Below the pieces are notes generated by a model that was not told the origin of the DNA, did not search any database, and was given only the letters and a program-made list of their open reading frames with translations. Source: an uncultured Candidatus Babeliaceae bacterium (GTDB taxonomy: Bacteria; Babelota; Babeliae; Babelales; Babelaceae). From it: 64,000 bases of DNA. This document shows positions 5,230-64,000 of this stretch, one piece after another. Made by a program: the position numbers and the translations under genes. The stretch lies in the NCBI GenBank assembly GCA_963704655.1, contig OY969927.1, forward strand, positions 256,001 to 320,000. Direction: 5' to 3'. Numbering within the stretch: position 1 is the first letter of the stretch; each line of letters starts with the position of its first letter.

Positions 5230-8200
5230 ATGAAGCAGTATCTTTATGCAGCAATCGCTGCAGCCATGTTATGTTTAGTATCTGTGAATGCGCACATAAA
5301 CTCCTTAGATAAGGCTTTTGAGGCTCTGCATGGGCTTGAAGATGCTCTTGAAAACAACAATCAAAGTGGTCTATCAAGTGATCTTGTTATTTTAGTGCTG
5401 CATGATCTTGCCTGTTATCTTGAACAGGATAGTGCGCTTTCTATAGATGAACATGCGGCTCTTGCAAAAAGAGTTTATCAGCTTGCAAAAAATCTTAATC
5501 TATTAACGCGTGCGCCCCGTTTTGATGCACCAGTAATACCACAAACAGGTATACTTGAAGAAAACTATTATAGAACTCGTGATCTATATTTGCGTAATCT
5601 TTTAATAACCGGATCGCTTATTTTAAATGGTCAGCAAATTGGCGGTAATGTACCAAGTGGATTGTATGTATTAAAAGCTGGTGACATTATGACCGGTGAT
5701 TTAACTATGGCAAACCAGCAGGGTATTGTCTTTGAGGACCTTACTTATACCGGTTCTGTAATTCTCACTGCACCAGCACTGGTAACAACGTCATATACGC
5801 TTGAGCTGCCAAGTCAACCAGGTGCGGCCGGGACAATTTTAGCAACAGATGGTGGCAACCCTGCTATACTTTCATGGGAATTACCCGTTTCACTTTTTAC
5901 GGCAACGGTTCAACTTTATGGTGATGTTATTGGTTCAACATCTGCTGACACCATTAATACTATTTGTGGTCAACAGGCTTGCGCAATTGTCACTACGGTA
6001 ACCAGTGCATCAAGTGGCAATGTATGTGGTACGCTTGTTAAGCGTGATGCAAATTGTAACTTTTCTGCAAACCTCATTACGGCTACGGCTACCAATGCGC
6101 TTATAACACAAACGGCATTATATGCGCAAAGCGCTGGCTCAGCTAACTTTGCCTTTACCTCTTCAAGTGCGTTATATTCAACAACGGCACAATATGCAAC
6201 AAACGCATTACTTTCGGTAACATCCCAATATGCAGCACAGGCAGGTACAGTAAACTTTGCCTTTACGTCTTCAAGTGCGTTATATTCAACAACAGTGCAA
6301 TATGCAACAAATGCATTACTTTCGGTAACATCACAGTATGCACAACAAGCTAGCTCAGCTAATTTTGCCTTTACGTCTTCAAGTGCGTTATATTCAACAA
6401 CAGTGCAATATGCAACAAATGCATTACTTTCGGTAACATCACAATATGCGCAAAATGCAGGTTCAGTTAACTTTGCCTTTACGTCATCTAGTGCGTTATA
6501 TTCAACAACAGCGCAGTATGCAACAAATGCATTACTTTCAGTAACCTCCCAATACGCACCACAAGCAGGTTCAGTGAACTTTGCCTTTACGTCTTCAAGT
6601 GCTTTATATTCTACAACGGCACAATATGCAACAAACGCATTACTTTCGGTAACGTCACAATATGCAACAAACGCAGGTTCAGTTAACTTTGCCTTTACGT
6701 CATCAAGTGCATTATTTTCAACAACAGCGCAATATGCAACCAATGTATTACTTTCAGTAACAACGCAGTATGCTCAAAATGTAAATTCGGCTAACTTTGT
6801 CTTTACGTCTTCTAGCGCGTTATATTCTACAACGGCCCAATATGTAACCAATGCATTACTTTCAGTAACGTCACAATATGCAGCACAAGCAGGCTCAGCT
6901 AATTTTGCCTTTACCTCATCTAGTGCGTTATATTCTACAACGGCCCAATATGCAACAAATGCATTGTTTTCAGTAACCTCCCAATACGCACCACAAGCAG
7001 GTTCAGTGAACTTTGCCTTTACGTCTTCAAGTGCTTTATATTCAACAACGGCACAATATGCAACAAACGCATTACTTTCGGTAACGTCACAATATGCAAC
7101 AAACGCAGGTTCAGTTAACTTTGCCTTTACGTCATCAAGTGCGTTATTTTCAACAACAGCACAATATGCAACAAATGCATTACTTTCAGTAACGTCACAA
7201 TACGCAACAACCGCAGGTACAGTGAACTTTGCCTTTACCTCATCTAGTGCGTTATATTCTACAACGGCCCAATATGCAACAAATGCATTACTTTCAGTAA
7301 CATCACAATATGTGCCATGTGCTGATTCTGCGAACTTTGCCTTTACCTCATCAAGCGCATTATTTTCAACAACGGCCCAATATGTAACAAATGCATTACT
7401 TTCAGTAACATCACAATATGTGCCATGTGCAGATTCAGCTAACTTTGCGTTTACCTCATCAAGCGCATTATTTTCAACAACGGCCCAATATGCAACAAAT
7501 GCATTACTTTCGGTAACGTCGCAATATGCGCCATGTGCAGATTCAGCAAACTTTGCCTTTACATCTTCTAGCGCGTTATATTCAACAACAGCAGTGTATG
7601 CAACAAATGCGTTACTTTCGGTAACCTCACAATATGCAGCACAAGCAGGCTCAGCTAACTTTGCCTTTACGTCATCAAGTGCGCTCTATTCAACAACGGC
7701 TGTGTATGCAACAAATGCATTACTTTCGGTAACATCAGAGTATTTCACCGGGCAATTATATGGTGATGTTATGGGGACACAAACTGCAACTCAAATTGTC
7801 ACCATCTGCGGCGTGCCTGCATGTAATTTAGTACAGGCATTTTCTATGGTACTTTCAGCAACATCATGTGATAGTCCATTAACTCTTATTTTACGAGATA
7901 CCACAGGTAGCTTTGAAGCCACAACTATAACATTAATGGGTAATAGTCTTATTAACTATAGTGAATATGGAGATTGCGATACGGGCCAAAATTTTATTTT
8001 TGCACCACTTAATTACAATACGATTATCGGTATAAATGCTAATAATAATAGTCCATCTGTAGGTTCAGGAAACACGGTCTATGGATTTAACGCACTTGCA
8101 AATAATAGTATGGCAGATGACAACACCGCAATCGGAGCAGATGCTCTTGCTAATACTATCAGTGGGCAATTGACAGCGGTTGGTTCAGGCGCATTATCCA

Positions 8201-10191
8201 GTATTACTTCAGGTACTCAAAATGTTGCTGTTGGCTATTACGCACTTAATGAAGATACTACCGACAACAATAATACTGCTTTAGGGTATCTGGCTATGAT
8301 TTACAGTAGTGGTGGTTCAAATAATACTGCCTGTGGAGCTTATGCATTACAGTATAATAGCGGGCATGATTCTATAGCATTTGGGAATTCCGTATTGCAA
8401 AATAACCAAACCGGTAACAGCATCGGTATCGGAAATTATGCTTTAGAAAGCGCTGGAAGTAATGTTTCAGATCTCATAGGCATTGGGTATCAAGCTTTAA
8501 ATCAGGTGTCTTCGTCAGGGTCATATCCACAGGGGGATGTTGCTATTGGGTCCAATGCTTTAGCCTCTCAGTATTATAGCGCGGGTTCTGTTGCCATAGG
8601 CTATTATAGTTTACGTACGCCCGTTTATGCACAAACCTTTTCCGGAAGCAATATAGCAATTGGCTATCAAACACTGTATAGTAGTGGCTCTACTAGTGAT
8701 AATATTGCACTTGGATCAAATGCTTTATATTCAAACGTTCTTGGCGAAACGCAAATCGCCATTGGGCACCAAGCGTTAGAAAATTTTACAGGTGAAAGTA
8801 TTGGAAATCCTTATGGTAATATAGCGATTGGTTATAATGCGTTACAAGCAAATCTAACGCGTTATATCATTGGGGTAGGTTCTGGTGCATTAGCACAAAA
8901 TACTACCGGCTATCAAAACGTTGGCATTGGTTATTATGCGTTAAACTTAAATACCACCGGAACTTCGAATGTTGCCTGTGGGTATCAAGCGCTTAATAAC
9001 TCTGCTAACTCTTGCAACAGCGCTTTTGGCGCATCAGCATTATCAATAGCATCAGGTTCCAGCAGACTAAACACTGCTGTTGGCTGCAATGCTTTAGGCA
9101 ACTTACAGACGGGTGCGAATAATGTCGCGCTTGGTTACTCAGCAGGGTTAAATTTAATCAGTGGTTCAGGAAATATCTATATTGGTGCAAATATACAGCC
9201 AGTAGGGACATCAGAAAATAATACCATACGGGTTGGTAATATTACCGGTACGCCAATATCAGTCGGAACAACGGTTGTTTCTGATATACAAAATAAAATC
9301 GGTGTTGCCACATCATCGCAAAACTTTAAAAACAATGTTCTGCCTATAACAACTGAGTCAAATAATATCTATGAGCTTAATCCGGTATTATTTACCTATA
9401 AAGATGATCCGCTCAATACCATTCAATATGGTTTTATCGCAGAAGAAGTTGCTACCATCTATCCAGGAACCGTGCCACTTGATCAAAATGGTATGCCCTT
9501 ATCAGTTGATTATCTGCAATTTGTGGCGCTGCTTACGAGTGAGATGCAAAAAGTGCATACTGTTTTACCCTATACAAGCACGTGTAATGTCGTTGTGGGC
9601 GCGCAGTCATTGCCAGAATTAACAAGTGGCACTTCAAATACCATAATTGGTGCTCAGGCAGGCTCAAATATCATCACGGGGTCACAAAATATCTATCTTG
9701 GTTGTGCAGTTACGGGCTCAGGAGATGAAAGCAATGTGATAAGAATCGGGGTGCAAGAGATGCAAACAGCTGCTTATGGTGCGGGCGTGTATAATCAAGC
9801 ATGCGTGCCAACAAATTTGCCGGTTATGATAGATGACACCGGAAAACTTGGTACCGTTTCGTCATCACGGCGTTATAAACATACTATTCAAGATATGGGC
9901 AGCATAACTGATAATATCTATGCATTACGTCCTGTTACTTTCAATAATCTTGAATATGGGCTTGTTGCTGATGAAGTTGAAGCGATCTTTCCAGGAATGG
10001 TTATTAAAAATAATGCTGGCTTGCCAGAAGCGGTTCAATATCAGTATGTGCCTATGATGATGCTTAATGAAAGAAAAAAAGATCATGCCCATATTAAGCG
10101 GCTAAAGGATACCGTCAAAAAACTTGCCAACAGGCTTGCTGAATTGCAGGAAAAATGTGATGCGCTATGCAAAAAAGCGCATCTTACTTGA
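5230..10191 (+). CDS. Giant secreted fibre/adhesin-like protein 1 with tandem Peptidase_S74 chaperone domains
   Basis: Signal peptide MKQYLYAAIAAAMLCLVSVNA; YVLKAGDIMTGDL tail-fibre motif; 15x36-aa repeats; NxAxGxxAL repeats; SSQNFK...YGFIAEEV and SSRRYK...YGLVADEV; terminal coiled coil. Confidence 0.9.
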   Translation: MKQYLYAAIAAAMLCLVSVNAHINSLDKAFEALHGLEDALENNNQSGLSSDLVILVLHDLACYLEQDSALSIDEHAALAKRVYQLAKNLNLLTRAPRFDAPVIPQTGILEENYYRTRDLYLRNLLITGSLILNGQQIGGNVPSGLYVLKAGDIMTGDLTMANQQGIVFEDLTYTGSVILTAPALVTTSYTLELPSQPGAAGTILATDGGNPAILSWELPVSLFTATVQLYGDVIGSTSADTINTICGQQACAIVTTVTSASSGNVCGTLVKRDANCNFSANLITATATNALITQTALYAQSAGSANFAFTSSSALYSTTAQYATNALLSVTSQYAAQAGTVNFAFTSSSALYSTTVQYATNALLSVTSQYAQQASSANFAFTSSSALYSTTVQYATNALLSVTSQYAQNAGSVNFAFTSSSALYSTTAQYATNALLSVTSQYAPQAGSVNFAFTSSSALYSTTAQYATNALLSVTSQYATNAGSVNFAFTSSSALFSTTAQYATNVLLSVTTQYAQNVNSANFVFTSSSALYSTTAQYVTNALLSVTSQYAAQAGSANFAFTSSSALYSTTAQYATNALFSVTSQYAPQAGSVNFAFTSSSALYSTTAQYATNALLSVTSQYATNAGSVNFAFTSSSALFSTTAQYATNALLSVTSQYATTAGTVNFAFTSSSALYSTTAQYATNALLSVTSQYVPCADSANFAFTSSSALFSTTAQYVTNALLSVTSQYVPCADSANFAFTSSSALFSTTAQYATNALLSVTSQYAPCADSANFAFTSSSALYSTTAVYATNALLSVTSQYAAQAGSANFAFTSSSALYSTTAVYATNALLSVTSEYFTGQLYGDVMGTQTATQIVTICGVPACNLVQAFSMVLSATSCDSPLTLILRDTTGSFEATTITLMGNSLINYSEYGDCDTGQNFIFAPLNYNTIIGINANNNSPSVGSGNTVYGFNALANNSMADDNTAIGADALANTISGQLTAVGSGALSSITSGTQNVAVGYYALNEDTTDNNNTALGYLAMIYSSGGSNNTACGAYALQYNSGHDSIAFGNSVLQNNQTGNSIGIGNYALESAGSNVSDLIGIGYQALNQVSSSGSYPQGDVAIGSNALASQYYSAGSVAIGYYSLRTPVYAQTFSGSNIAIGYQTLYSSGSTSDNIALGSNALYSNVLGETQIAIGHQALENFTGESIGNPYGNIAIGYNALQANLTRYIIGVGSGALAQNTTGYQNVGIGYYALNLNTTGTSNVACGYQALNNSANSCNSAFGASALSIASGSSRLNTAVGCNALGNLQTGANNVALGYSAGLNLISGSGNIYIGANIQPVGTSENNTIRVGNITGTPISVGTTVVSDIQNKIGVATSSQNFKNNVLPITTESNNIYELNPVLFTYKDDPLNTIQYGFIAEEVATIYPGTVPLDQNGMPLSVDYLQFVALLTSEMQKVHTVLPYTSTCNVVVGAQSLPELTSGTSNTIIGAQAGSNIITGSQNIYLGCAVTGSGDESNVIRIGVQEMQTAAYGAGVYNQACVPTNLPVMIDDTGKLGTVSSSRRYKHTIQDMGSITDNIYALRPVTFNNLEYGLVADEVEAIFPGMVIKNNAGLPEAVQYQYVPMMMLNERKKDHAHIKRLKDTVKKLANRLAELQEKCDALCKKAHLT
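6133..7752 (+). repeat. Coding tandem repeat, 15 x 108 bp (36 aa)
   Basis: AGSANFAFTSSSALYSTTAQYATNALLSVTSQYAxx counted 15 times. Confidence 0.95.
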
Positions 10192-10259: not shown

Positions 10260-13200
10260 ATGAAGCAGTATTTTTATGCAGCAGTTGCTGCAGCAATGTT
10301 ATACGCACTATCTATGCACGCCCAGATAACATCACCAGATCAAGCCTATGGGGTGTTGCAGGAGCTTGAACTGCTCACGCAGGGTGATCAATATGATGCA
10401 TCACAAGATAATGTTATATTAGTGCTCGATGAGCTTGTGCGTTATCTTGAAAGCGATATACCACTTTCAATGCATGATCGTTTAGCATTGAGTAAAAAGG
10501 TAAGTCAGCTTGCAAAATCTCTTAATCTTCAGACACGCGCGCCTCGTTTTGATGCGCCAGAAATACCACAAACAAGTATACTTGATGAAAATTATTATAG
10601 AACCCGTGATCTATATTTGCGTAATCTTTTAATAACCGGTTCTCTTATTTTAAATGGTCAGCAGGTTGCTGCACATGTTCCAAGTGGGTTGTATGTATTA
10701 AAAGCTGGTGACACCATGACGGGTGATTTAACTATGGCAAGTCAGCATGGCATCGTGTTTGATGATGCTGCAACCGGCTCAGTTACTATCATAGCACCTG
10801 CAACTGTTTCACCCACCTATACACTTGAGTTGCCAACGCAACCGGGTGCAATGGGGACCGTTTTAACAGCAGATGGTAATAACCCAGCACAGCTTTCTTG
10901 GCTGCCAGTTACTGTTGTTACCACAGCAACTATTCAACTTTATGGTGATGTTATTGGCTCATCAACTGCAACCATAGTAAATACTATTTGTGGTCAAAAG
11001 GCATGTAACATTGTTACTACGGTAACTACCGGTACAAGTAACAATGTCTGTGGCACATTGGTAATGCGTGATAGCGACTGTAACTTTTCAGCAAATATCA
11101 TTACGGCAACGGTAACCAACGCGCTTCTTTCACAAACAGCATTATATGCGCCATGCGCAGGTTCTGCTAACTTTGCTTTTACGTCTTCTAGTGCGCTCTA
11201 TTCAACAACGGCAGTGTATGCAACAAACGCATTGCTTTCAGTAACGTCACAATATGCAACGCAAGCGGGTTCTGCTAATTTTGCCTTTACGTCATCAAGT
11301 GCGCTCTATTCAACAACGGCGCAATATGCAACAAATGCTTTACTTTCAGTAACGTCGCAATATGCAACACAAGCGGGTTCTGCTAATTTTGCCTTTACGT
11401 CATCAAGTGCGCTCTATTCAACAACGGCGCAATATGCAACAAATGCTTTACTTTCAGTAACATCACAGTATGCAGCACAAGCAGGTTCAGCAAACTTTGC
11501 CTTTACGTCATCTAGCGCGTTATATTCAACAACAGCGGTCTATGCAACAAATGCATTACTATCAGTAACGTCGCAATATGCAACACAAGCGGGTTCTGCT
11601 AATTTTGCCTTTACGTCATCAAGTGCGCTCTATTCAACAACGGCCCAATATGCAACAAATGCTTTACTTTCGGTAACGTCGCAATATGCAACACAAGCGG
11701 GTTTTGCTAATTTTGCCTTTACGTCATCTAGTGCATTATTTTCAACAACAGCAGTATATGCAACAAATGCATTACTTTCGGTAACGTCGCAGTATGCAAC
11801 GCAAGCAGATTCGGCTAATTTTGCCTTTACTTCTTCTAGTGCATTATTTTCAACAACGGCAGTTTATGCAACAAATGCATTACTTTCGGTGACGGCACAA
11901 TATGCGCCATACGCAGATTCTGCTAACTTTGCCTTTACTTCTTCTAGTGCATTATTTTCAACAACGGCCCAATATGCAACAAATGCATTACTTTCGGTAA
12001 CGTCGCAATATGCAACACAAGCGGGTTTTGCTAATTTTGCCTTTACGTCATCTAGTGCATTATTTTCAACAACAGCAGTATATGCAACAAATGCATTACT
12101 TTCGGTAACGTCGCAGTATGCAACGCAAGCAGATTCGGCTAATTTTGCCTTTACTTCTTCTAGTGCATTATTTTCAACAACGGCAGTTTATGCAACAAAT
12201 GCATTACTTTCGGTGACGGCACAATATGCGCCATACGCAGATTCGGCTAATTTTGCCTTTACGTCATCTAGTGCGTTATATTCAACAACAGCGGTCTATG
12301 CAACAAATGCCTTACTTTCAGTAACGTCACAATATGCGCCATACGCAGATTCTGCTAACTTTGCCTTTACCTCATCAAGCGCATTATTTTCAACAACAGC
12401 CCAATATGCAACAAATGCATTACTTTCGGTAACGGCACAATATGCAGCAACCGCAGGTTCTGCTAACTTTGCCTTTACTTCTTCTAGCGCGTTATATTCA
12501 ACAACTGCGCAATATGCAACTAATGCATTGCTTTCAGTAACGTCGCAATATGCGCAAAACGCAGGTTCTGCTAACTTTGCCTTTACGTCATCGAGCGCGT
12601 TATATTCAACAACAGCGGTCTATGCAACTAACGCATTACTTTCAGTAACGTCGCAATATGCAGCACAAGCAGGCTCAGCTAACTTTGCCTTTACGTCATC
12701 AAGTGCGCTCTATTCAACAACGGCCCAATATGCAACAAATGCATTACTTTCGGTAACTTCGGAGTATTTCACCGGGCAATTATATGGCGATGTTGTGGGA
12801 ACACAAGATGAAACTCAAATTGTCTCTATCTGCGGCGTGCCTGCATGTAATTTAGTACAGACATTTTCTATGGTACTTTCAGCAACATCATGTGATAGTC
12901 CGTTAACTCTTATTTTGCGAGATGACACTGGCAGCTTTGCAGCAACAACTATTACTTTAACGGGCGATAGTCTTATTAATTATAATCCCTATGGTGATTG
13001 TGGCCCTAGTTCTGGTTTTATCTTTTCTCCCATTTATGACAATACGATTATTGGTTTAAATGCTAATAACAACGACCCATTTGCAGGTTCAAATAATACC
13101 GCATATGGTTTTAATGCCCTTGCAAGCAATTATTTGGCAACTGACAACACGGCAATTGGGGTAAATGCACTCAGTAGTAACACTATGATTAGTCAATTGA

Positions 13201-15182: not shown

Positions 15183-15187
15183 TTTTT

Positions 15188-33400: not shown

Positions 33401-35394
33401 TTAACTCATTAACCACATCAACAGCAAATACCGCAATTGGTTATCGTGCATTACAAAATGTTACTACACGTTTTGGTGGGCACGTTGCTCTGGGAAGTTT
33501 AACGTTAACGTCACTTTCTGGTGGCGGCCAAGGAAACACGGGTATTGGCTCAAGTGCGTTTACCCAATTAACCACGGGAAGCATCAATACGGCACTTGGT
33601 TTTAATGCGGGCAATAGCTTAACTACTGGAACAGGAAATATTATCATTGGCGCCTATACCGCGCAAGGTTTAACCTCTGGAGCAAATAACATTATCATCG
33701 GCCAGGGTGCAGTTGCAGCAGCATCAACAGCAAGTAATAATACTATTATCGGTACACTTGTAGGTGTTAATAGTACCTCAAGCAATAATGCTGTAGTTGG
33801 GTATCAAGCATTGCAAAATGATACCGCAGGAAACCAAGTTGCTGTTGGATACCAAGCAATGCAAAGTAATACAGCCGGTATACAGAATACTGCTGTTGGC
33901 TATTATGCGCTTAATGCGAATATTACTGGAACATCAAACGTTGCTATTGGATTTAGGGCACTTGCAAATGCTAATACCATAAATAACTTTGACAATATCG
34001 CAATTGGTGCATTTACTTTAACAAGCACAACAGCTTTTGGTGATAATGTTGCAATTGGCGCAAATGCATTAGCAAGCCCGAATTATTATAATCTTATAAG
34101 CGCGTTACCAACTTTTCCTGGAGGGCAGCAAGTTGCTATCGGCTCAGGCGCTTTACAGAATAACACGAATGGTTTTTTTAATACCGCAATAGGATATTAT
34201 GCATTACAAGCAAATACAGAGGGGTTTGGTAATACTGCCGTTGGTTACCAAGCATTAGTCAATACCAATGGTCCAGGCTTTCCAACTCTAACAGGTTGTT
34301 ATAATGTTGGTTTAGGGGCTGAAGTGCTTCAAAATAATACCACCGGCGCTAGAAATACCGCTGTTGGTTATAGTGCACTGCAACTTTCTACTACTGTATC
34401 TGACAATACCGCAGTTGGTTATGGTGCACTTTCTGGAACACTCACAGGAGGATCAACAGCAATTGGTAGCTCGGCACTAATTGAAAATACTACAGGTATT
34501 CAAAATACTGCAGTTGGATATTCTGCACTTAAGGGAAATACAATTGGCAATAGCAATACCGTATTAGGGTATAATGCAGGAGCTGATTTTACGACAGGTA
34601 GCCAAAATACCTTTATAGGTTACAGTGCCGGAATTGGAGGTGTAAACCCAACTGGATCATTTAATACAATAGTTGGTTCTTCTGCAGGTTCATTAATTAC
34701 AACAGGAACATGCAATATTATTATTGGACAAAGTAGCGCCGTAAATTTAAGCTCCGGCTCGAATAACGTGATAATTGGTCAAGGTGCAGCAAGCGCAATT
34801 ACTACAGGGACTAATAACATTATCATTGGAAACTTAGCACTTTCGGGAAATGTAGCAGCTAACATCAATAATAGTATCATTATCGGAGACCCAAACCCTG
34901 GTTTTGCTGCAGGATCTAGCGGTAATATTCAAATTGGTTTTTTTACGGGTAATCCCGCTGCAACAGTATGTTATATCGATGGCATCTATGGAAAAGCTGG
35001 AAGCGGAAATGCTGTGTCATGTACAACTTCTGGTCAATTAGTAGCACCAAGCTCATCCAAAAAATATAAAGAAAATGTTATAAATTTAACAAATATCTCA
35101 GAAAATATTTTTAAATTACGTCCTATAAGTTTTAATTATATTGCTGATACTAAAAAAGAAATCGCTTATGGGCTTCTTGCTGAAGAAGTCGAAGAAGTTT
35201 TACCAGAGTTGATTGTTAAAACTGAACAAGGCGTAACAGATTCTGTAAAATATCTTTACTTACCAATTTTGATGCTTAATGAGCAGCAAAAAGATCATGC
35301 ACGCATTGTGGCCCTTGAAAAAGAGAATGTTCTGATGCGCGGACAGATTTATGATCTTCAAGTAAAAATAGAGAAGTTACTTGCACAGGCATAA
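27469..35394 (+). CDS. Giant fibre/adhesin-like protein 4 with C-terminal Peptidase_S74; different N-terminus, no triplet shaft
   Basis: ATG 27469 has AAGGA RBS and starts MKQILYTLLFFGYVTA; LRDxxGSF linkers; NxAxG repeats; SSKKYK...YGLLAEEV. Confidence 0.88.
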   Translation: MKQILYTLLFFGYVTANMAEQENALVPLYRIDEDTQEIDLEPFGYFVMGNRFCTTAPYYTLLLPPAIGLPNQVLGLENSTSGQMTWLTTVTSSNQLNLIYSATSCDVPLTLILRDNNGSFVATTITLTGDSLINYGSGPCTGQSFILAPTQGNTIIGLNTGTAITTGTNNIYLGANINNGNEGGAIRIGKQGAQIAAYIAGIYNNLQVGEPVVVTSSGQLGVGSYSNLINTATSCDNALTLVLRDSTGSFAATTITLTGNSLINYSTIGGCDKGEGFIFAPTNQNTLIGLNAGNNNTLTGTSNIALGYDALASITAGFDNIAIGAFAGQSLIGGEGENSSYIFNGAADNIAIGAGALASTQQGFSNVAIGTSALMTGTDLVVNGGIFAGTYPMQYNVAIGYQASMNAIAYQFFGDSILDPQPEPIINTAIGSFALTNNISGNVNTAVGNSALSANVIGSFNTAVGDSALSANVDAGDNTAVGVSALLTVTSGGNNTAIGANADVNDQYAQNRTVIGAGASGTVDNSVMLGNRDIQYIMPGGLDNSTDLGYAPSNLFNNVQAKQLNIYDSSDTNYAGINAYPLGYAYTYTLQMPINQGSENQMLFTDGNNPAQLYWSTVPTPTLLTHATSADVPNTLVLRDGTGSFDTYTISLDCSLKLPATTATCGQIQLNNQPFMHAYGTQNAFLGTNAGNFISTGAYNIGIGYQALFNNTNGQSNVAIGASALQANTSGQSNVAIGVSALQANISGNENIAIGASALQTNTNGFANIAIGASALLSNTNGSNNIALGLAALSNNNGYQNIAIGTASLENNSSGNDNIAIGNTSLLANITGSEQVAIGSNALHNNTTGINNVAIGYQTLQTNTSGSNNTALGYEANVGSKNLTNATAIGAQAIVNASNTIVLGNSSVTNILPGNDRTVDFGSSAVRLNTLHALTDRLYDTNNNYAALTAPIANYSPGSYTLQLPLYQGSANQVLSTDGNTPAQLSWVTTLTNSAQLNLLYTATSCDNALALVLRDSTGSFAATTITLTGNSLINYSSVGGCDTGQSFILAPTQGNTIIGLNTGTAITTGTNNIYLGANINNGNEGGAIRIGKQGAQIAAYIAGIYNNLQVGEPVVVTSSGQLGVGSYSNLINTATSCDNILSLVLRDSTGSFVATTITLTGNSLINYSSVGGCDSGAGFVFAPTHQNTIIGLNAGNSNNLTGTSNVALGYQALANNITGYNNTALGFGTLATNTNKSNNVAIGTNAMASANPLFGNSVAIGYQALAHDLSGYNVAVGSQALSANTSGYENTAVGTFALQDNNSGTGNSAFGASALSANTSGGSNTAIGTLALNANMIGNYNTAVGSQAMYATTAGYYNTALGINAMNSAQASHDVAIGYNSLGLDSAGFNVAVGEATLSNIITGTYNVALGYEAGVNAGTSTSNSIYIANQGNSTDSNVTYIGTQGTQTAAYVAGIYNNLQVGEPVVVTSSGQLGIGSYSNLINTATSCDNALTLVLRDSTGSFAATTVTLTGNSLINYSSIGGCGIGQGFVWAPTNQNTIIGLGAGNNNVLTGTSNIALGYQALANAKTINNFDNIAIGAFTLTATAVLGDNIAIGVNALSSANYSGGQQIAIGTNNLALNTTGTANIAIGYEVLDANTVGSSNVGVGFMALGNNVSGNDNTAIGTLALYNNTTSQLTAVGSGALYNNTSGSDNVAIGYYALNANTTGQNNVAVGNQALSVSVNNNGNTAVGTNALQNNITLRLTAVGANALQHNTSGIQNVAVGYNALTANTTGTNNVAVGYNALSENLIGTSNIAIGYQALTANTAGDDNIGIGTNALVNAQGNRNVAMGSSAFQTISGNTASDNVALGYYALIVSTTGQSVAIGSGALAANTFGTQNTAVGYYALNANITGTSNVALGYQALANAKTINNFDNIAIGAFTLSGTAVLGDNIAIGVNALSNANYNQANQIAIGSGALQNNTSGFQNTAVGYQALNSLTTSTANTAIGYRALQNVTTRFGGHVALGSLTLTSLSGGGQGNTGIGSSAFTQLTTGSINTALGFNAGNSLTTGTGNIIIGAYTAQGLTSGANNIIIGQGAVAAASTASNNTIIGTLVGVNSTSSNNAVVGYQALQNDTAGNQVAVGYQAMQSNTAGIQNTAVGYYALNANITGTSNVAIGFRALANANTINNFDNIAIGAFTLTSTTAFGDNVAIGANALASPNYYNLISALPTFPGGQQVAIGSGALQNNTNGFFNTAIGYYALQANTEGFGNTAVGYQALVNTNGPGFPTLTGCYNVGLGAEVLQNNTTGARNTAVGYSALQLSTTVSDNTAVGYGALSGTLTGGSTAIGSSALIENTTGIQNTAVGYSALKGNTIGNSNTVLGYNAGADFTTGSQNTFIGYSAGIGGVNPTGSFNTIVGSSAGSLITTGTCNIIIGQSSAVNLSSGSNNVIIGQGAASAITTGTNNIIIGNLALSGNVAANINNSIIIGDPNPGFAAGSSGNIQIGFFTGNPAATVCYIDGIYGKAGSGNAVSCTTSGQLVAPSSSKKYKENVINLTNISENIFKLRPISFNYIADTKKEIAYGLLAEEVEEVLPELIVKTEQGVTDSVKYLYLPILMLNEQQKDHARIVALEKENVLMRGQIYDLQVKIEKLLAQA

Positions 35395-35409
35395 AGATAA
35401 CCTTGTTAT

Positions 35410-35450: not shown

Positions 35451-35470
35451 GTGAGCGTTCATTAACTAAA

Positions 35471-36829: not shown

Positions 36830-36980
36830 AGGTTTTTTCCTTTGTTTTTTGAATACATGCTTGATAGAAAGTTACCTAATAGCAGCTTTACAAGTCAAGT
36901 TGCATAAGGATTTTCTGCGTTCTGATAATTTACGGTGTCGTTTATACGCAAATACATTAAGAGCTGTTATTGATTATGTA

Positions 36981-37052
36981 TTGACTCATGTCATATTTGC
37001 ATGTTAATAACAACTACAATATCTACATTTTAAAAAAAGAGAGTTAGTAGTT
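36981..37052 (+). promoter_or_regulatory. Conserved fibre-gene leader, copy 4
   Basis: TTGAC-N16-TGTTAATAACAACTACAATATCTACATTTT-A7-GAGAGTTAGTAGTT-ATG. Confidence 0.8.
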
Positions 37053-40000
37053 ATGAAGCAATATCTTTATGCAGCAGTCGCTGCAGCCATGTTATGTGTA
37101 TCTTTACAAGCAGAAATAATCTCATTGGAACAGGCTTATGTGGTTTTACAAGAGCTTGAAATGTTCGCACAAGGCGATCAACTTGATGCATCGAGTGATA
37201 CTATTATGTTCGCGCTTGATGAACTTATAGGTTATCTTGAAAGTGATACACAGCTTTCAGCAGATGTTCGTTTGGATATTTCAAAAAAGATTAATCTGCT
37301 TGTTAAAAAAATTAATCTGCAGACACGTGCGCCACGTTTAGATGCACCAGAAATACGTGAAACTACAATACTTAATGAAAATTATTACCCAACGCGCGAT
37401 CTCTATTTACGCAACTTACTCATTACCGGCTCGCTTATTTTAAATGGCCAGCAGATCGGCGGTGGCGGCAGTGTGCCAAGTAATCTCTATGTATTAAAAG
37501 CTGGCGACACCATGACGGGCGATTTAACCATGGCAGACCAGCATGGCATTGTATTAGAAGATGCTTCTGGCGCCAATGCAATTACCGTGCAAGCCCCAAA
37601 TACTACCGAAACTTATAGCTTTACGTTGCCAGATAGTGCTGGCGCTGCAAACCAAGCGCTTACTACAGACGGCTTTGGGAATTTAACGTGGGCATCTGCG
37701 ATTGCAACAACCTCTGGATTACAAAGTATTAATAATCTCACAACACCGCACCAATATCTTCTTACCAGCACGGGGACATCAACTGCATTTCAGTTTATCG
37801 AAACAAGTTCTTCGCATATTTTAAATATTCCATACGTTCAGGATTCTAGCCAAGGGTATGGTCTTCTAGATTCTGCTGATTACAATAATTTTGTTAATGC
37901 CGCAAACATGGTTAATGCTGCAACCAGCGACGACGTTTGTGGCACACTTGTAAAGCGTGATGCTAATTGTAATTTTTCAGCTAATATAATTACGGCAACC
38001 GTAACGTATGCTAACTTTGCCTTAACGTCTTCAAGTGCATTAACGGCAGTAACATCAACAACGGCACAATATGCACAGGTAGCAAACAGCGCCAACTATC
38101 TTTGTGGCGTACCTGCATGTAATTTAGTAAGTACCTATTCACAAGTTCTTTCCGGGACAAGTTTTGATATTCCATTAACACTCGTCTTGCGTGATAGCAC
38201 CGGCAGCTTTGCAGCAACAACTATTACACTCACCGGTGAATTGTTGTTACAAAATGCAAATGGTAATCTAACAGCGCTTCAAGCAGGTGCGCAAAGTTTT
38301 GCTCCAGTGTATACACTGATATTGCCAACAACAATTGGTGGTGATAATCAGGTATTAACAACAGACGGTAATAACCCAGCAAATCTTTTTTGGCAGCCTG
38401 TTTCTGCAATTGTAACTTCTACAATTGAACTTTATGGCGATGTTATGGGGTCATCAACTGCAAATATCGTTAATACTATATGCGGACAAAGTGCATGTTC
38501 AATTGTTACCACCGTTACCACTGCAACAAGTGACAATATCTGTGGTACTTTGGTAAAACGTGACAGTAACTGTAACTTTTCTGCTAATTTAATTACTGCA
38601 ACGGTGACAAATGCACTTCTTTCACAAACAGCATTATATGCAACTAATGCGCTACTTTCGGTAACTTCGCAATATGCGCAAAACGCAGGTTCGACTAACT
38701 TTGCTTACACGTCATCGCTTGCACAATATGCACAGGTAGCAAACAGTGCCAACTATCTTTGTGGTGTGCCTGCATGTAATTTAGTAAATACATATTCACA
38801 GGTACTTTCCGGGACAAGTTTTGATATTCCATTAACACTCGTCTTGCGTGATAGCACCGGCAGCTTTGCAGCAACAACTATTACACTCACCGGTGAATTG
38901 TTGTTACAAAATGCAAATGGTAATCTAACAGCGCTTGAAGCTGGTGCGCAAAGTTTTGCTCCAGTCTATACATTAATATTGCCAACAACAATTGGTGGTG
39001 ATAATCAGGTATTAACAACAGACGGTAATAACCCAGCAAATCTTTTTTGGCAGCCTGTTTCTGCAATTGTAACTTCTACAATTGAACTTTATGGCGATGT
39101 TATGGGGTCATCAACTGCAAATCATGTTGCATTTGTATGTGGCGTGCCTGCATGTGCACTCGCACAAACGTATTCAACGGTTCTTTCAGCAACTGCATGT
39201 GATATTCCACTCACGCTTATATTGCGTGACAGCACGGGCAGCTTTGCGGCAACAACTATTACACTCACGGGAAACAGTTTAATAAATTACAGCTCTGTCG
39301 GCGGATGCAACACTGGAGCTGGCTTTGTCTTTGCTCCGACAAAACAAAACACCATTATCGGGCTTGGTGCTGGTAATAATAACGTTCTCACTGGAACATC
39401 AAACATTGCAGTTGGATATCAGGCACTTGCAAAAAATACTTCTGGTTATAATAATGTGGCTCTTGGATTTAAGGCACTTGCAAATGGCAATACGATCAAT
39501 AACTTTGACAATATCGCCATTGGCGCCAATACGCTTTCTGGCGCATCTATTTTAGGTGATAACGTTGCAGTTGGAACAAATGCGCTTTCTGCGTCGGGTT
39601 ATACCGGCGGGCAGCAGATAGCAATTGGAACGGGTGCGTTACAAGCAAATACCACCGGTACTGGAAACATCGCAATTGGTTATGATGCATTACAAACAAA
39701 TACAAGTGGGGTAAATAATATAGCAATAGGCGCTTATGCACTGAGTAAGTTAAACTATAACCTACCGTTTCTTGGTATACCTAGCGGGGCAAATAATATT
39801 GCTATAGGCTCCAATGCATTAAGTAATATAGCTATAGCTGGTGAAAATGTCGCTATAGGCTCAAATACCTTACAGAATGGATCTTTTTCATACGGAAATG
39901 TTGCTATTGGTTATAACGCATTTGTTTTTGGCAATTCAGCATTCAATGTGGCTGTTGGTAATTCGAGTATGGTCAGCAATAATACGGGCGCAAGCAACAC

Positions 40001-42941
40001 AGCTGTTGGTTATTATTCACTTTCTGGTAACATAAGTGGCAATAGCAATACAGCTATAGGTTCTTATTCACTTTCTGGTAACATAACTGGCTTTAATAAC
40101 ACTGCAGTTGGTTATAATGCTCTAACGGCTTCAGTTGGCAGTGACCTTACTGCTGTGGGAGCTCAAGCTTTACAAAATAATACCTTAGGTACTCAAAACG
40201 TTGGCGTGGGTTATAGCGCACTACAAGACAATACTATAGGATCTAATAGTACTGCTGTTGGATACAATGCTCTTATCAATGCAGTAAGCTCAAACAATAA
40301 TACTGCCATTGGTAATTTTACACTTAACAATGCGGCTGTTGGTTCAGACAATACCGCTGTTGGTAATCAGGCTCTATCAAATACCCAAACAAGTTCGTTG
40401 GTTGGAATAGGTTCTGGTGCGCTATTCAATAATAGCACCGGCGCACAAAATGTTGCTGTTGGTTATTATGCACTTAATGCAAATACAACTGGTGGATCAA
40501 ACACTGCGTTAGGATACAATGTGCTCAACCAATCAACCGGCAGCAATAACACGGTAGTCGGCGCAAACTCTGGCACCGGCATAACATCTGGAGCACATAA
40601 TATTTATCTTGGTGACAGCATTAATAATGGCAATGAAAGTAATACTATACGAATTGGCAACAGTAACCAAACTGAAGCATATGTTGCGGGCATTTATGGA
40701 ACATCATTACCAAGTGGTTCACCTGTTGTTGTTACATCAAGTGGCCAGCTTGGCATCGGTTCTTCAACAACAGTCACCGGCACCAGCTGCGATACAGCAC
40801 TCACGTTTATATTGCGTGACAGCACGGGCAGCTTTGCAGCAACAACCGTCACACTCACCGGCCACAGCTTAATTAATTACAGCTCTGTGGGCGGGTGCGA
40901 TACGGGCGCTGGCTTTGTCTGGGCGCCAACAAACCAAAATACTATTATCGGCTTAAACGCAGGAAATAATAATGTCATTACTGGCACATCAAACGTTGCT
41001 TTAGGCTACCATGCACTTGCAAATGCAAAAACTATAAATAACTTTGACAATATAGCTATCGGCGCATTTACCCTTACTGGAACTGCCGTGCTTGGCGACA
41101 ATATCGCAATTGGGGTGAATGCCCTTTCAAATGTGAACTATAACAAAGGCCAGCAGATTGCTATTGGTACTGGAGCATTGCAAAATAATACAAGCGGTAT
41201 ACAAAATACTGCAGTGGGTTATTATGCGTTAAACTTAAATACAACCGGAACATCAAACGTCGCTCTAGGTTATAATGCTGGAAGTGGTTTAATTACTGGT
41301 ACAGGGAACATTATCATTGGCGCATATACCGCCCAAGGTTTAACCTCTGGAGCAAATAATATTATTATCGGGCAAGGCGCTACCGCAGCAGCATCAACCG
41401 CAAGTAATAATACTACTATTGGTACACTTGTAGGTGTTAATAGTACCTCGAGTAATAATGTCGTAGTTGGTTATCAAGCATTACAAAATGATACGGCCGG
41501 AAACCAAGTTGCTGTTGGATATCAAGCATTACAAAATAACACTGACGGTTCACAAAATACTGCTGTTGGGTACCAAGCGCTTAATGCGAATACTACTGGA
41601 ACATCAAATGTGGCTCTTGGGTTTAAGGCACTTGCAAATGGCAATACTATCAATAATTCTCGCAATATAGCAATTGGGGCCAATGCCCTTTCTGGATCTG
41701 CCGTGCTTGGTGACAATGTCGCAATTGGGGTGAATGCACTTTCAAATGTGAACTATAACCAGAAGCAGCAGATAGCTATCGGAACAGGTGCATTGCAAGA
41801 TAATACAAACGGTACGCAAAATATTGCTATAGGATATCAAGCGCTTAATGCAAATACTGGGTCAGGACAGAACGTTGTTATAGGGACCGAAGCATTATCA
41901 TCTGTTAATGATGCTAGTTCGTTTTCTAATGTAGTAATAGGGCATCAAGCTCTACAAACTGGGAACAATACCATATATGAAAACGTGGCCATTGGTTATC
42001 AAGCAATGCAAGCGAATAATGCTAGTGCCCAATGCGTTGCTATCGGTTGTCAGGCACTTCTAAATAATCAAAATCCGTATATAACCGCTATAGGTTATCA
42101 GGCACTTCAAATGAATAATGCGGGAGCGCTAAACACGGCAGTGGGAGCAGGTGCATTAAGTCAATCAAGTGGTCAAGCTAACAATACAGCCGTGGGCTAT
42201 AGTGCATTAGCTAATAATTCCAATGGTAATAATAATACCGCGGTGGGTACTTATGCTTTATCCGGAGGAGCTGTAAGTACTGGTTATTACAATGTTGGAG
42301 TTGGGGTTGGGGCTGGTACACAAATAACATCTGGAAATTCAAATACGCTTATTGGTTGTATCGCAGGTACAAATCTTGACTCAGGCAACAATAATACCAT
42401 GATTGGTTATAATACAGGCGGCAGCGTTACTACTGGAAACAACGTTATTGTTATTGGAGCAGGCCTGCCCGGTTCAAACACTGCAAACAGCACATATATA
42501 GCTGGCATTTCTGGGGCAACGGCAAGTGGTGGCGTAGAGGTATATTGTAATACCAGCAGTCAACTTGGAACTGTTAATTCTTCTCGACGTTATAAAGAAA
42601 ATATTAAGGACCTAGGTAATTTTTCAGATAATATCTATAAATTACGTCCCGTGCAATTTAATTACATAAGTGATCAAGAAAAGTGGTTTGAAGCTGGTTT
42701 AATAGCAGAAGAAGTAGAGGATGTTTATCCAGAAATAATTGTTTATAACAAAGATGGTGAAGTTGAAACGATACGCTATAAACAGGTGTATATGATGATG
42801 CTTAATGAACAGCAAAAAGATCATGCACGCATTGCCACCCTTGAAGATCAATGTAGTGCATTGCAACAAACCAATAACCTGATGTCCGCACAGATCGCCG
42901 ATCTCCAAGCAAAAATTGAGATGTTATTAGCAAAGGCATAA
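37053..42941 (+). CDS. Giant secreted fibre/adhesin-like protein 5 with C-terminal Peptidase_S74
   Basis: N-terminus and S74 nearly identical to protein 3; only vestigial triplet shaft; SSRRYK...AGLIAEEV. Confidence 0.9.
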   Translation: MKQYLYAAVAAAMLCVSLQAEIISLEQAYVVLQELEMFAQGDQLDASSDTIMFALDELIGYLESDTQLSADVRLDISKKINLLVKKINLQTRAPRLDAPEIRETTILNENYYPTRDLYLRNLLITGSLILNGQQIGGGGSVPSNLYVLKAGDTMTGDLTMADQHGIVLEDASGANAITVQAPNTTETYSFTLPDSAGAANQALTTDGFGNLTWASAIATTSGLQSINNLTTPHQYLLTSTGTSTAFQFIETSSSHILNIPYVQDSSQGYGLLDSADYNNFVNAANMVNAATSDDVCGTLVKRDANCNFSANIITATVTYANFALTSSSALTAVTSTTAQYAQVANSANYLCGVPACNLVSTYSQVLSGTSFDIPLTLVLRDSTGSFAATTITLTGELLLQNANGNLTALQAGAQSFAPVYTLILPTTIGGDNQVLTTDGNNPANLFWQPVSAIVTSTIELYGDVMGSSTANIVNTICGQSACSIVTTVTTATSDNICGTLVKRDSNCNFSANLITATVTNALLSQTALYATNALLSVTSQYAQNAGSTNFAYTSSLAQYAQVANSANYLCGVPACNLVNTYSQVLSGTSFDIPLTLVLRDSTGSFAATTITLTGELLLQNANGNLTALEAGAQSFAPVYTLILPTTIGGDNQVLTTDGNNPANLFWQPVSAIVTSTIELYGDVMGSSTANHVAFVCGVPACALAQTYSTVLSATACDIPLTLILRDSTGSFAATTITLTGNSLINYSSVGGCNTGAGFVFAPTKQNTIIGLGAGNNNVLTGTSNIAVGYQALAKNTSGYNNVALGFKALANGNTINNFDNIAIGANTLSGASILGDNVAVGTNALSASGYTGGQQIAIGTGALQANTTGTGNIAIGYDALQTNTSGVNNIAIGAYALSKLNYNLPFLGIPSGANNIAIGSNALSNIAIAGENVAIGSNTLQNGSFSYGNVAIGYNAFVFGNSAFNVAVGNSSMVSNNTGASNTAVGYYSLSGNISGNSNTAIGSYSLSGNITGFNNTAVGYNALTASVGSDLTAVGAQALQNNTLGTQNVGVGYSALQDNTIGSNSTAVGYNALINAVSSNNNTAIGNFTLNNAAVGSDNTAVGNQALSNTQTSSLVGIGSGALFNNSTGAQNVAVGYYALNANTTGGSNTALGYNVLNQSTGSNNTVVGANSGTGITSGAHNIYLGDSINNGNESNTIRIGNSNQTEAYVAGIYGTSLPSGSPVVVTSSGQLGIGSSTTVTGTSCDTALTFILRDSTGSFAATTVTLTGHSLINYSSVGGCDTGAGFVWAPTNQNTIIGLNAGNNNVITGTSNVALGYHALANAKTINNFDNIAIGAFTLTGTAVLGDNIAIGVNALSNVNYNKGQQIAIGTGALQNNTSGIQNTAVGYYALNLNTTGTSNVALGYNAGSGLITGTGNIIIGAYTAQGLTSGANNIIIGQGATAAASTASNNTTIGTLVGVNSTSSNNVVVGYQALQNDTAGNQVAVGYQALQNNTDGSQNTAVGYQALNANTTGTSNVALGFKALANGNTINNSRNIAIGANALSGSAVLGDNVAIGVNALSNVNYNQKQQIAIGTGALQDNTNGTQNIAIGYQALNANTGSGQNVVIGTEALSSVNDASSFSNVVIGHQALQTGNNTIYENVAIGYQAMQANNASAQCVAIGCQALLNNQNPYITAIGYQALQMNNAGALNTAVGAGALSQSSGQANNTAVGYSALANNSNGNNNTAVGTYALSGGAVSTGYYNVGVGVGAGTQITSGNSNTLIGCIAGTNLDSGNNNTMIGYNTGGSVTTGNNVIVIGAGLPGSNTANSTYIAGISGATASGGVEVYCNTSSQLGTVNSSRRYKENIKDLGNFSDNIYKLRPVQFNYISDQEKWFEAGLIAEEVEDVYPEIIVYNKDGEVETIRYKQVYMMMLNEQQKDHARIATLEDQCSALQQTNNLMSAQIADLQAKIEMLLAKA

Positions 42942-44520: not shown

Positions 44521-44522
44521 TA

Positions 44523-63998: not shown

Positions 63999-64000
63999 TT

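Follow-up and report, generated by a model that had tools for sequence, protein, structure and literature searches.

What do giant proteins that resemble bacteriophage tail fibres do in a bacterium with a reduced genome? The question is raised by the window analysed here (the whole stretch of 64,000 nucleotides), which belongs to a genome recovered as a single contig of 1.30 Mb and 96% complete. By the titles of related records, its source is a member of the Dependentiae (TM6), Babeliales, and presumably a reduced-genome parasite of protists. Six giant ORFs of 1,640 to 4,777 aa touch the window, five on the forward strand and one on the reverse strand that runs past position 64,000, as a sequence-only reading of this DNA had reported. 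That reading described an array of five genes and a sixth, which is right for the window and understates the extent of the family. Genome-wide, there are nine fibre genes with Peptidase_S74 (S74) domains, at four places, as well as two non-S74 relatives of 909 and 1821 aa in which a C-terminal globular domain of ~200 aa replaces S74. The tip domain of the 1821-aa relative had no matches in PDB. Together, these genes occupy ~5.85% of the genome's DNA.

The genes of the window are built from a common set of parts. Gene B (5230..10191, +, 1653 aa) encodes, from N to C terminus, a signal-like N-terminus, a helical N-domain, a KAGD module, 15 repeats of 36 aa and a collar (RD..G.F), after which come a 17-aa NTAVG shaft, an internal S74 domain, a short shaft and a terminal S74 domain with a heptad tail. 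Gene C (10260..15182, +, 1640 aa) follows the same plan, including the two S74 domains. Gene D (15299..27388, +, 4029 aa) has the N-domain of B, and its interior holds arrays of 24-, 42- and 48-aa repeats, an insert of ~400 aa and several shaft blocks linked by S74-less "pre-S74" modules, ahead of a terminal S74. Gene E (27469..35394, +) encodes 2641 aa from an ATG (MKQILYTLLFF), the likelier start; an alternative TTG at 27385, given in the ORF listing, would yield 2669 aa. Its product starts with another, second type of N-terminus, which lacks the helical/KAPR region, and continues through a long NTAVG shaft to a terminal S74. Gene F (37053..42941, +, 1962 aa) combines the N-domain of B to D with three KAGD-type/collar modules, an NTAVG shaft and a terminal S74. 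Finally, gene G is represented by its 3′ part (58905..64000, −, 1697 codons) before it leaves the window; the whole gene (genome C1:314908-329280) encodes 4777 aa with an E-type N-terminus, ~107 NTAVG repeats and a terminal S74. Scans for promoters (42 found vs. 35.2 ± 6.8 in shuffled controls) and terminators (13 found vs. 10.1 ± 3.1) gave counts close to those of the controls, and contigs from three DNA sequencing runs covered positions 30001-50000 in short, low-depth pieces only.

One clue to the nature of these proteins lies at their C-termini. All six window proteins end in an S74 domain followed by a heptad tail, located at 9820..10176 (+, SSRRYK) in B, 14802..15179 (+) in C, 26966..27376 (+) in D, 35011..35388 (+) in E, 42537..42935 (+) in F and 58908..59318 (−) in G. 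Pfam PF13884 (Peptidase_S74) scored above its gathering score in all six genes, with E-values of 2.7e-8 to 4e-23, and across the genome it marked 12 stretches in nine ORFs, each above the cut-off. An S-x4-K dyad (SSRRYK-like) occupies the aligned position in 12/12 of these stretches, G[LF][ILV]A[ED]EV is found in every copy, and the dyad Ser and Lys are almost invariant in an alignment (A4) of the C-terminal regions. When compared with solved structures, a profile of the C-terminal region matched a long tail fibre (6f45, 2.5e-8), MyRF (7dc3, 1.7e-4) and the L-shaped tail fibre of phage T5 (8hqz, 4e-4). The earlier identification of terminal S74 chaperone domains, with S-x4-K and GLIAEEV-type motifs and a coiled coil, is thus confirmed. 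Phage tail fibres and tailspikes (8hqz, 6f45) likewise carry S74 with the dyad and a helical segment after it, and the K1F endosialidase, cited in PMC10769870, is a phage tailspike with a C-terminal intramolecular chaperone. The MyRF ICA domain (7dc3) is also of the S74 type, trimerises and cleaves itself, but it belongs to a eukaryotic membrane-bound transcription factor without a fibre shaft.

A second clue comes from the shafts. Spacings between NTAVG repeats put the period at 17 residues: 17 was counted 172 times, and 16 and 19 were counted 16 times each. The value of 14, which the sequence-only reading had given as the period, falls outside the 12 commonest spacings and has to be replaced. 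The 36-residue repeats are encoded by 108-bp tandem arrays, at 6139..7737 (+, 14.8 copies, 85% matches) in B and 11157..12761 (+, 14.9 copies, 86% matches) in C, and gene D holds 126/144-bp arrays at 16207..18644 (+), in which the 144-bp unit occurs in 8.4 copies with 95% matches. In PHROGs, the NTAVG region matched families of tail spikes and of virion structural proteins, with values from 1e-41 to 1e-53. A 441-aa query from this region matched 73 phage records, 17 of which cover at least 80% of it. The best E-value was for the tail fibre of Pelagibacter phage HTVC111P (38% identity, E 2e-44), and identities of 34-39% over 76-93% of the query were seen among the 15 phage records listed. The shafts here and those of Pelagibacter and Roseobacter phage tail fibres are therefore homologous, and derivation of the Dependentiae shaft from phage fibres, as had been proposed, is supported by these sequence matches.

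The same cannot be said of every part. The RD..G.F motif occurs in 6/6 window genes, in agreement with the earlier description of tail-fibre motifs; KAGD.M.G.L, which had been ascribed to all of them, occurs in 4/6, being found neither in gene E (27469-35394) nor in gene G. Residues 141-300, comprising the KAGD module and collar, had no tblastn match at E <= 1e-3 in 50,697 phage records, so a phage origin is not demonstrable for every module. Searches of PDB with phmmer returned 0 matches for the whole of gene C and 0 for the 441-aa NTAVG block. In the ESM Atlas, a homologue (P0012) gave best scores of 0.85-0.88, including a Phage_fiber_2 cluster, and these serve as leads only.

At the N-terminus, all 11 fibre proteins start with M-K, continue with a hydrophobic stretch and end it in an A-x-A-like sequence; in the window proteins, M-K-x precedes a 12-residue window whose mean Kyte-Doolittle value is 1.5-2.8. 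Since the call combines this crude hydropathy measure with a reading of the sequence, the signal peptides are putative. In gene C, the region used as query (10260..10940, +) comprises the signal-like residues 1-21, helices at about residues 26-88 and a KAGDTMTGDL module at residues 144-217, and it includes the conserved block TRAPRFDAP...RDLYLRNLLITGSL. A motif of the form KAPR...RDxYLRNLxxTGSL characterises this type of N-terminal region. Among the paralogues, this region is the most conserved part, with 63-70% identity over four genes and invariant blocks. When the first 227 residues were modelled as a monomer, the mean pLDDT was a poor 52, and only the helices at ~26-88 came near 70. Pfam, NCBIfam and PHROGs gave no match for residues 1-300, the gene D insert or the gene E N-terminus. 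A phyletic survey of the N-domain, which the sequence-only reading had suggested, located full-length copies solely within this genus.

The family as a whole is far more widely distributed than this N-domain. A scan of relatives, using alignment A3, produced 44 related loci, of which 20 are titled Dependentiae, TM6 or Babeliales and 12 come from Bdellovibrio, Bdellovibrionales, Bacteriovoracaceae or Peredibacter, with the KAGD module in common. Within the phylum, S74 occurs in 70/261 genomes, with a maximum of 17 matches per genome. The paralogues of the present genome, nine with S74 and two with other tips, form a mosaic family: seven DNA segments of 390-1373 bp are common to different paralogues at 88-94% identity and at non-collinear positions. 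Fibre genes also diverge much faster than their neighbours, with synteny conserved. In a genome of the same genus (G003), the order of YdjM followed by a fibre gene is kept, and YdjM is 82% identical, whereas the three best alignments with a G003 fibre protein reach 40-44%.

The occurrence of relatives in Bdellovibrio-like predators leads to the closest known counterpart. Bdellovibrio uses mosaic adhesive trimer (MAT) proteins as prey-gripping fibres (Caulton et al. 2024, PMC10769870), and the available part of that paper describes proteins in which a signal peptide is followed by a conserved N-domain, a mosaic trimeric shaft and a tip that is either S74 or another domain. The N-terminal region is presumed there to keep the fibre attached to the cell, and the S74 subgroup includes Bd3182 of Bdellovibrio bacteriovorus. 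As far as that account goes, the Dependentiae proteins resemble the S74 subgroup in their signal-like N-terminus, paralogue-conserved N-terminal region, long mosaic shaft and terminal S74 chaperone-protease with a Ser/Lys dyad, in having non-S74 members with other tip domains, and in forming multigene, partly contiguous families without phage context. Moreover, a module of ~70 residues (KAGDTMTG...LP...G..L..DG) is homologous to one in proteins of Bdellovibrio-like predators. A 704-aa Peredibacter protein, for example, has a signal, an N-domain, the KAGD module, S74 and a heptad tail, and BLASTP with gene C aligned only its S74 (7e-16) and its module (1e-9). The N-domain of this protein occurs in 13 copies in the Peredibacter genome, and for the same strain PMC13147790 reports 29 MAT proteins, of which 20 are encoded contiguously.

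There are differences from MAT as well. In the part of the MAT paper available, the N-domain is beta-rich, measures ~130 aa and follows the signal peptide, whereas here predicted helices precede KAPR...RDxYLRNL. By BLASTP, with the 13-copy Peredibacter N-domain as a stand-in for the MAT of HD100, no MAT-type N-domain was found here, and searches of two predator genomes turned up no copy of the N-domain of the Dependentiae fibres. The MAT capping-loop motif V-G-G/N-pi-x-x-P-x-x-x-L, common to MAT and MyRF in the same partial source (PMC10769870), was sought as a loosened regular expression, which was positive in 17/155 collected proteins, in 0/11 fibre proteins and in 0/14 large proteins scanned from the genome. 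The Dependentiae fibres are also 2 to 5 times larger, their shafts consist of the 17-residue NTAVG repeat and 36-residue arrays, three of them have internal S74 domains, and their owner parasitises protists while Bdellovibrio preys on bacteria. The fibres are, in short, of a MAT-like kind already described, distinct in N-domain, capping loop, size and internal S74. The suggestion of an undescribed system must accordingly be given up, as MAT has the same plan and a common module, and relatives are already entered at NCBI under the name "tail fiber domain-containing protein".

Considered together, these observations make it probable, though well short of certain, that the genes constitute a repertoire, encoded on the chromosome and passed on vertically, of giant fibres on the MAT plan, exported, trimerised through S74, held by their N-termini and used in binding to a host. 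In such a scheme, an N-terminal Sec-type signal would export each precursor, and the C-terminal S74 and heptad tail would align three chains and nucleate folding of a beta-structured shaft. S74 would then sever itself from the chain, with the cut at the dyad Ser (S-x4-K), exposing the distal tip. The conserved N-terminal region, with its helical segment and KAPR...RDxYLRNLxxTGSL motif, would keep the fibre on the cell surface, and the variable, recombining shafts and tips could bind structures on the host cell and so promote attachment and uptake of the bacterium. A genome search found two Omp85 and two secretin genes, which implies that an outer membrane is present and provides a possible exit route by which the fibres might cross it.

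Another way to read the same proteins is that they leave the cell, or make up a loose coat of fibrils, instead of acting as individually anchored adhesins. Such a coat might lure phagocytic protists or protect the cell outside its host, with the N-terminal region serving export or fibre-fibre contacts. Several features are in keeping with this idea. A search of residues 1-300 for an anchoring device found neither a lipobox nor a transmembrane anchor, and neither a barrel nor a domain known to bind the cell wall; by composition count, the fibre proteins have very few charged residues and abundant N, T, A, G and S; and the next gene downstream of F encodes a GT2 glycosyltransferase. The internal S74 domains, present in three fibre proteins of the genome and located in the window at 9274..9561 (+, SSQNFK) in B and 14253..14555 (+, SSKNLK) in C, also deserve attention here, as they would, if active, sever the downstream shaft from the anchored part and free it, an outcome for which the simple model does not account. 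On the other hand, the present data contain no sign of release, and the region most conserved among the paralogues is the N-terminal one, just as in MAT, where, in the available account, that region is thought to hold the fibre. A released coat is therefore a serious but rather unlikely alternative to fibres held by their N-termini.

It is also conceivable that the target of the fibres is not a eukaryotic host but other bacteria, in the way that MAT targets prey. They have a module and a plan in common with proteins of Bdellovibrio-like predators, and their homologues among phage tail fibres bind bacterial surfaces. The lineage speaks against this, given that cultured Dependentiae are described as parasites living inside protist cells in the available parts of two papers (PMC12172432; PMC6561590). 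So does a genome search that found TLC ATP/ADP translocases (two ORFs, seen as three matches), which are typical for energy parasites of eukaryotic cells. Bacterial targets are accordingly improbable, and binding to the protist host is the better reading.

Much less credible still is the idea that the genes are tail fibres of a remnant prophage, tailocin or contractile injection system, for all that their S74 and shaft are homologous to those of phage fibres. A search of the whole genome for four phage particle families gave 0 matches for each, namely Phage_sheath_1 (PF04984), HK97 Phage_capsid (PF05065), Terminase_6N (PF03237) and Baseplate_J (PF04865). The neighbours of the fibre genes are housekeeping genes (GAPDH, SpoIID, YdjM, GT2, TatD, SerRS, SecDF and a DNA ligase), their position is conserved in the genus, and the nine S74 genes are scattered over four places. 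A virion protein that is assembled in the cytoplasm would need no signal-like N-terminus of the sort seen here, and these proteins have neither a virion to attach to nor a phage-type N-terminal adaptor. The earlier statements that capsid, terminase and baseplate genes are missing, and that no prophage or tailocin lies nearby, both held over this search.

Long repetitive surface fibres for attachment are, of course, well known in Gram-negative bacteria as trimeric autotransporter adhesins such as YadA and BadA, which are held by a C-terminal barrel and whose YadA-head/Hep_Hag repeats are of a 14-residue type. That the Dependentiae fibres belong to this class is the least credible reading of all, the repetitive NxAxG shaft and heptad segment being only superficially alike, and membership is ruled out by the missing anchor: YadA_anchor (PF03895) has 0 matches in the genome, as had been anticipated, the C-termini are S74, the polarity is opposite, and neither YadA nor Hep_Hag families were detected at E <= 0.01, so that the beta-roll of YadA-head type once proposed gives way to phage tail fibre homology with a period of 17. 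Any likeness would be one of functional analogy only. The single classical autotransporter barrel of this genome is encoded elsewhere, at 829-830 kb.

A broader parallel exists with Omnitrophota and Patescibacteria, for which giant adhesin-like ORFs have been described in reduced-genome symbionts (PMC10066038, in the part available). There, too, host-dependent bacteria devote a large share of the genome to huge, poorly annotated, fast-evolving surface proteins; those ORFs have few recognisable domains in that account, whereas the plan seen here, with S74 and a phage-fibre shaft, is recognisable. A literature search returned no paper tying Dependentiae to tail-fibre-like or S74 proteins, and the term "mosaic adhesive trimer" led to Bdellovibrio-like predators only. 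The Chromulinavorax paper (PMC6561590), in its available portion, mentions only "surface antigens of unknown function".

For the Dependentiae, a repertoire of N-terminally held fibres would have clear consequences. With ~6% of a 1.3 Mb genome given over to them, S74 present in 70/261 genomes and rapid divergence, these genes are concrete candidates for determinants of host range. More tentatively, and as a possibility rather than an expectation, they may represent a branch of fibres peculiar to Dependentiae, with a helical N-terminal holdfast, giant shafts derived from the fusion of once separate fibre genes, some "polyprotein" fibres from which internal S74 domains excise further fibres, and a fast-recombining repertoire that determines by which protists the cell is taken up. 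If so, the repertoire would serve the bacterium as receptor-binding fibres serve phages and as surface fibrils serve giant viruses. The MAT idea would also reach beyond a predator among the bacteria and take in parasites of eukaryotes, with one toolkit of S74 and modules recruited together with differing N-terminal holdfasts.

The source genome is a single contig (C1) of 1,298,077 bp with a GC content of 0.38, in which the window occupies positions 256001–320000. As the sequence-only reading had described, the window holds five very large ORFs and a sixth running off its end, all with a terminal S74 domain. Fibre genes B (5230–10191; 1653 aa), C (10260–15182; 1640 aa), D (15299–27388; 4029 aa), E (27385/27469–35394; 2641 aa from the likelier ATG) and F (37053–42941; 1962 aa) lie on the plus strand, and gene G (58905 to past the window end; 4777 aa in the genome) lies on the minus strand. 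The assignment of their C-terminal domains to Peptidase_S74 was borne out, as Pfam PF13884 matched the C-terminus of all six above the gathering score (E 2.7e-8 to 4e-23). The remaining Pfam matches in these proteins were a compositional Plasmodium_HRP match and two below the cut-off. The C-terminal 263 residues, taken as a profile, matched three solved chains with S74-type domains: phage long tail fibre 6f45 (2.5e-8), whose SSDRRIK aligns with SSRRYK here, MyRF 7dc3 (1.7e-4) and the T5 L-shaped tail fibre 8hqz (4e-4). The S-x4-K residues are kept at the aligned position in all 12 S74 stretches of the genome. After every terminal S74 comes a short heptad-like tail, which on our reading is a predicted coiled coil and which weakly matched TolA_bind_tri (0.0043) and a designed coiled coil (0.057).

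A PF13884 search of the genome found nine such ORFs, six of them in or overlapping the window; the others lie at C1:343404–349034 in locus L046 (1869 aa, two S74 domains), 152–158 kb (2017 aa) and 811–817 kb (1993 aa). Two further relatives in L046 (C1:340599–343397, 909 aa; C1:349013–354499, 1821 aa) carry collar or KAGD motifs and end instead in a globular domain of ~200 residues (...EPSRES.FFDDF...YINDV.VG...LDY....Y...S.R). This ending gave a weak, sub-threshold SO2946-like_C match in one relative (1.3e-5) and no PDB sequence match; it also occurs in P0119, a gathered protein from elsewhere. Counted from the start Met, the eleven fibre genes amount to 25,311 codons, or 75.9 kb and 5.85% of the genome. 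In their products charged residues are very scarce (K 1.1, R 0.9, E 1.6 and D 2.7%) and A, T, N, G and S abound. An HMM built from the S74 domains of this genome found that 28 of 155 gathered proteins end in S74 (the six window translations and 22 others, gene G itself among the 22); many of the rest, as we read them, appear to have other recurrent C-terminal endings.

The N-terminal region is conserved among paralogues. Its first 227 residues are 63–70% identical across four window genes and comprise a signal-like segment, predicted helices at ~26–88, a TRAPR.DAP...RDLYLRNLLITGSLILNGQQ block that is invariant among the four, and the KAGDTMTGDL module. A monomer model gave the helices a pLDDT near 70, with the rest below 50 and a mean of 52. 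Residues 1–300 had no match in Pfam, NCBIfam or PHROGs, and residues 141–300, searched by tblastn at E <= 1e-3, matched none of 50,697 phage records, although the short KAGDTMTG motif is present in the solved phage tail fibre 8jov. Against 1.84 billion representative proteins, residues 1–300 gave 327 matches at E <= 1e-3. Among the 150 listed, the best stretch began before query residue 80 in 11, and the others covered residues ~142–218 (the KAGD module) and ~220–290 (the collar), units that recur within proteins as long as 6021 aa. With residues 22–140 alone, matches were found in 6 of 261 phylum genomes, the source included, all of the same genus, and in none of the 255 outside it; a profile including the KAGD module matched 47 of the 261, the longest ORF having 7397 aa, and matches over profile positions 1–232 were confined to the genus.

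A prophage or tailocin origin of the array was rejected on a search for four particle families and on the genes around it. Phage_sheath_1, Phage_capsid (HK97), Terminase_6N and Baseplate_J, the four families searched, had no match in this 96%-complete genome and did match in control genomes, while the flanks encode housekeeping functions (GAPDH, SpoIID, YdjM, a GT2 glycosyltransferase, TatD, SerRS, a HemN-like protein, SecDF and an ATP-dependent DNA ligase), so the earlier claim that no capsid, terminase or baseplate gene is present stands for these families. None of the window's three tRNA genes flanks the array. The claimed lack of an autotransporter anchor was likewise upheld: YadA_anchor is absent from the genome by family search, and the sole classical autotransporter barrel, at 829–830 kb, lies outside every fibre gene. 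Two Omp85 and two secretin genes indicate that an outer membrane is present and would have to be crossed by the fibres; exit through the secretin pathway is only a guess.

The shaft, by these alignments, is homologous to phage tail fibre proteins. The NTAVG region matched tail spike and virion structural families of PHROGs at 1e-41 to 1e-53, and a 441-aa query matched 73 phage records by tblastn, 17 of them over at least 80% of its length, led by the tail fibre of Pelagibacter phage HTVC111P (38% identity, E 2e-44), with Roseobacter CRP phages and cyanophage P-SSM2 next. The repeat, previously given as 14 residues long, has a period of 17 (172 spacings of 17 versus 16 of 16 and 16 of 19), and 14 falls outside the 12 commonest spacings, so that the resemblance to the YadA head, with its 14-residue repeat, breaks down. 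Nor is a YadA-head-like shaft supported by the Pfam search of the window fibre proteins, in which no YadA, Hep_Hag or autotransporter family appeared at E <= 0.01. As for the tail-fibre-type motifs, the RD..G.F collar motif is general (six of six window genes, with one to nine copies each), but KAGD.M.G.L occurs in only four.

The genes are also mosaic. The 36-residue repeats are encoded by tandem arrays of a 108-bp unit (14.8 and 14.9 copies, 85–86% matches), and gene D carries arrays of 126/144 bp. Seven DNA segments of 390–1373 bp are common to paralogues at 88–94% identity in non-collinear positions, and modules that normally precede the S74 cleavage site (...IRIGN...AAYVAGIYNNLQVGEPVV.TSSGQLG) also occur without S74 inside D, E, F and G. 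We read these segments and modules as probable signs of recombination and fusion of once-separate fibre genes. An insert of ~400 residues breaks up the fibre of gene D (window ~19600–20900, residues ~1440–1860); it has repeated hydrophobic strands and a propeller-like look, had no Pfam match at E <= 1, and may be a lateral binding domain. A neighbouring propeller protein, to which the insert showed no significant similarity (E 0.065), is encoded on the opposite strand between genes E and F (35471–36829; 452 aa, signal-like N-terminus, Lactonase-type 7-bladed beta-propeller PF10282, 9.6e-14). Directly downstream of gene F on the plus strand is a family 2 glycosyltransferase with a hydrophobic N-terminus (43065–43958; PF00535, 2.9e-24), and glycosylation of the fibres by this enzyme is a possibility. 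Farther along the plus strand, at 53588–55357, this reduced bacterial genome encodes an ATP-dependent DNA ligase in which the three domains PF04675, PF01068 and PF04679 are all present.

S74 was found in 70 of 261 genomes of the phylum, with up to 17 matches in one genome of 1.3–1.5 Mb; in a first sample it occurred in each of the five other members of the genus, in 15 of 24 genomes from the family and in 2 of 16 from other families of the order. Open frames that exceed all those here in length (6301–7403 aa) combine the KAGD module with a terminal S74 in other Dependentiae genomes of 1.1–1.7 Mb (G231, G255, G254 and G010). In the same-genus genome G003, SpoIID is again followed by YdjM and then a fibre gene, and YdjM is 82% identical; between gene C and a fibre protein of 1308 aa from another part of that G003 contig, the three best local alignments show 40–44% identity. 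The kept order and these unequal identities thus point to vertical inheritance with fast divergence. Relatives are named [quoted passage not shown] at NCBI, and our literature search found no paper connecting Dependentiae with tail-fibre-like or S74 proteins.

The plan itself, proposed earlier as that of an undescribed system, is a known one. According to the account of the mosaic adhesive trimer (MAT) fibres of Bdellovibrio (PMC10769870), 13 of 21 end in S74 with SDxxxK and 8 in other tip domains, the fibres were shown on the predator surface, Bd3182 was shown to cleave itself, and its authors propose that the N-domain attaches to some element of the predator's surface. The predicted fibres here share that plan. 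An N-terminal alignment scan with one genome per species gave 44 loci, by record title 20 from Dependentiae, TM6, Babeliales or Babeliaceae, 12 from Bdellovibrio, Bdellovibrionales, Bdellovibrionia, Bacteriovoracaceae or Peredibacter, 8 from bacteria of no named group, and 4 weakly matching ones from elsewhere. Residues 1–226/227 were matched by six of the loci, from four Babeliaceae, one Dependentiae and one other bacterium. These affiliations, together with the ATP/ADP translocase ORFs described below, place the organism in Dependentiae. A candidate MAT of 704 aa from Peredibacter (L023:2005–4119) combines a signal, N-domain, KAGD module, S74 and heptad tail, and aligns with gene C in both S74 (7e-16) and the KAGD module (1e-9); its N-domain has 13 copies in its genome, and a report on that strain gives 29 MAT proteins, 20 of them contiguous (PMC13147790). 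The link to proteins of Bdellovibrio-like predators is, by these comparisons, one of homology and not of analogy alone. However, the two N-domains are unrelated by sequence comparison and a low-confidence monomer model, and the MAT capping-loop motif occurs in none of 11 fibre proteins here (a loosened pattern matches 17 of the 155 gathered proteins). Since these two defining features are lacking, we file the fibres as a putative MAT-like, phage-fibre-derived kind and not as MAT members.

Trimerisation, cleavage, outer-membrane export, anchoring and ligand are all inferred from sequence, and the following course appears most likely. The precursor would be exported by Sec, after which the S74 domain would set three chains in register, chaperone shaft folding and cleave itself at the dyad Ser; the conserved N-terminal region would hold the fibre on the cell, and the variable shafts and tips would bind host surface structures. 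The main rival, in which the fibres come off the cell or make up a loose coat and do not act as anchored adhesins, seems unlikely. That they bind bacteria and not protists is quite improbable; cultured Dependentiae are described as intracellular parasites of protists (PMC6561590, PMC12172432), and two adjacent TLC ATP/ADP translocase ORFs (C1:575536–578513, as three matches to PF03219, best 4.7e-27) would fit an energy-parasitic intracellular lifestyle. Returning to anchored, host-binding fibres, Pfam placed a second, internal S74 stretch in genes B and C, and the internal domain has an intact S-x4-K in three fibre proteins (9274–9561 in B, 14253–14555 in C, and C1:343404–349034); in the last, 757 residues come after it and make up another shaft with another S74. 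Such domains may mark tandem "polyprotein" fibres or be the scars, or fossil joints, of gene fusions. If they are active, the downstream shaft would be detached.
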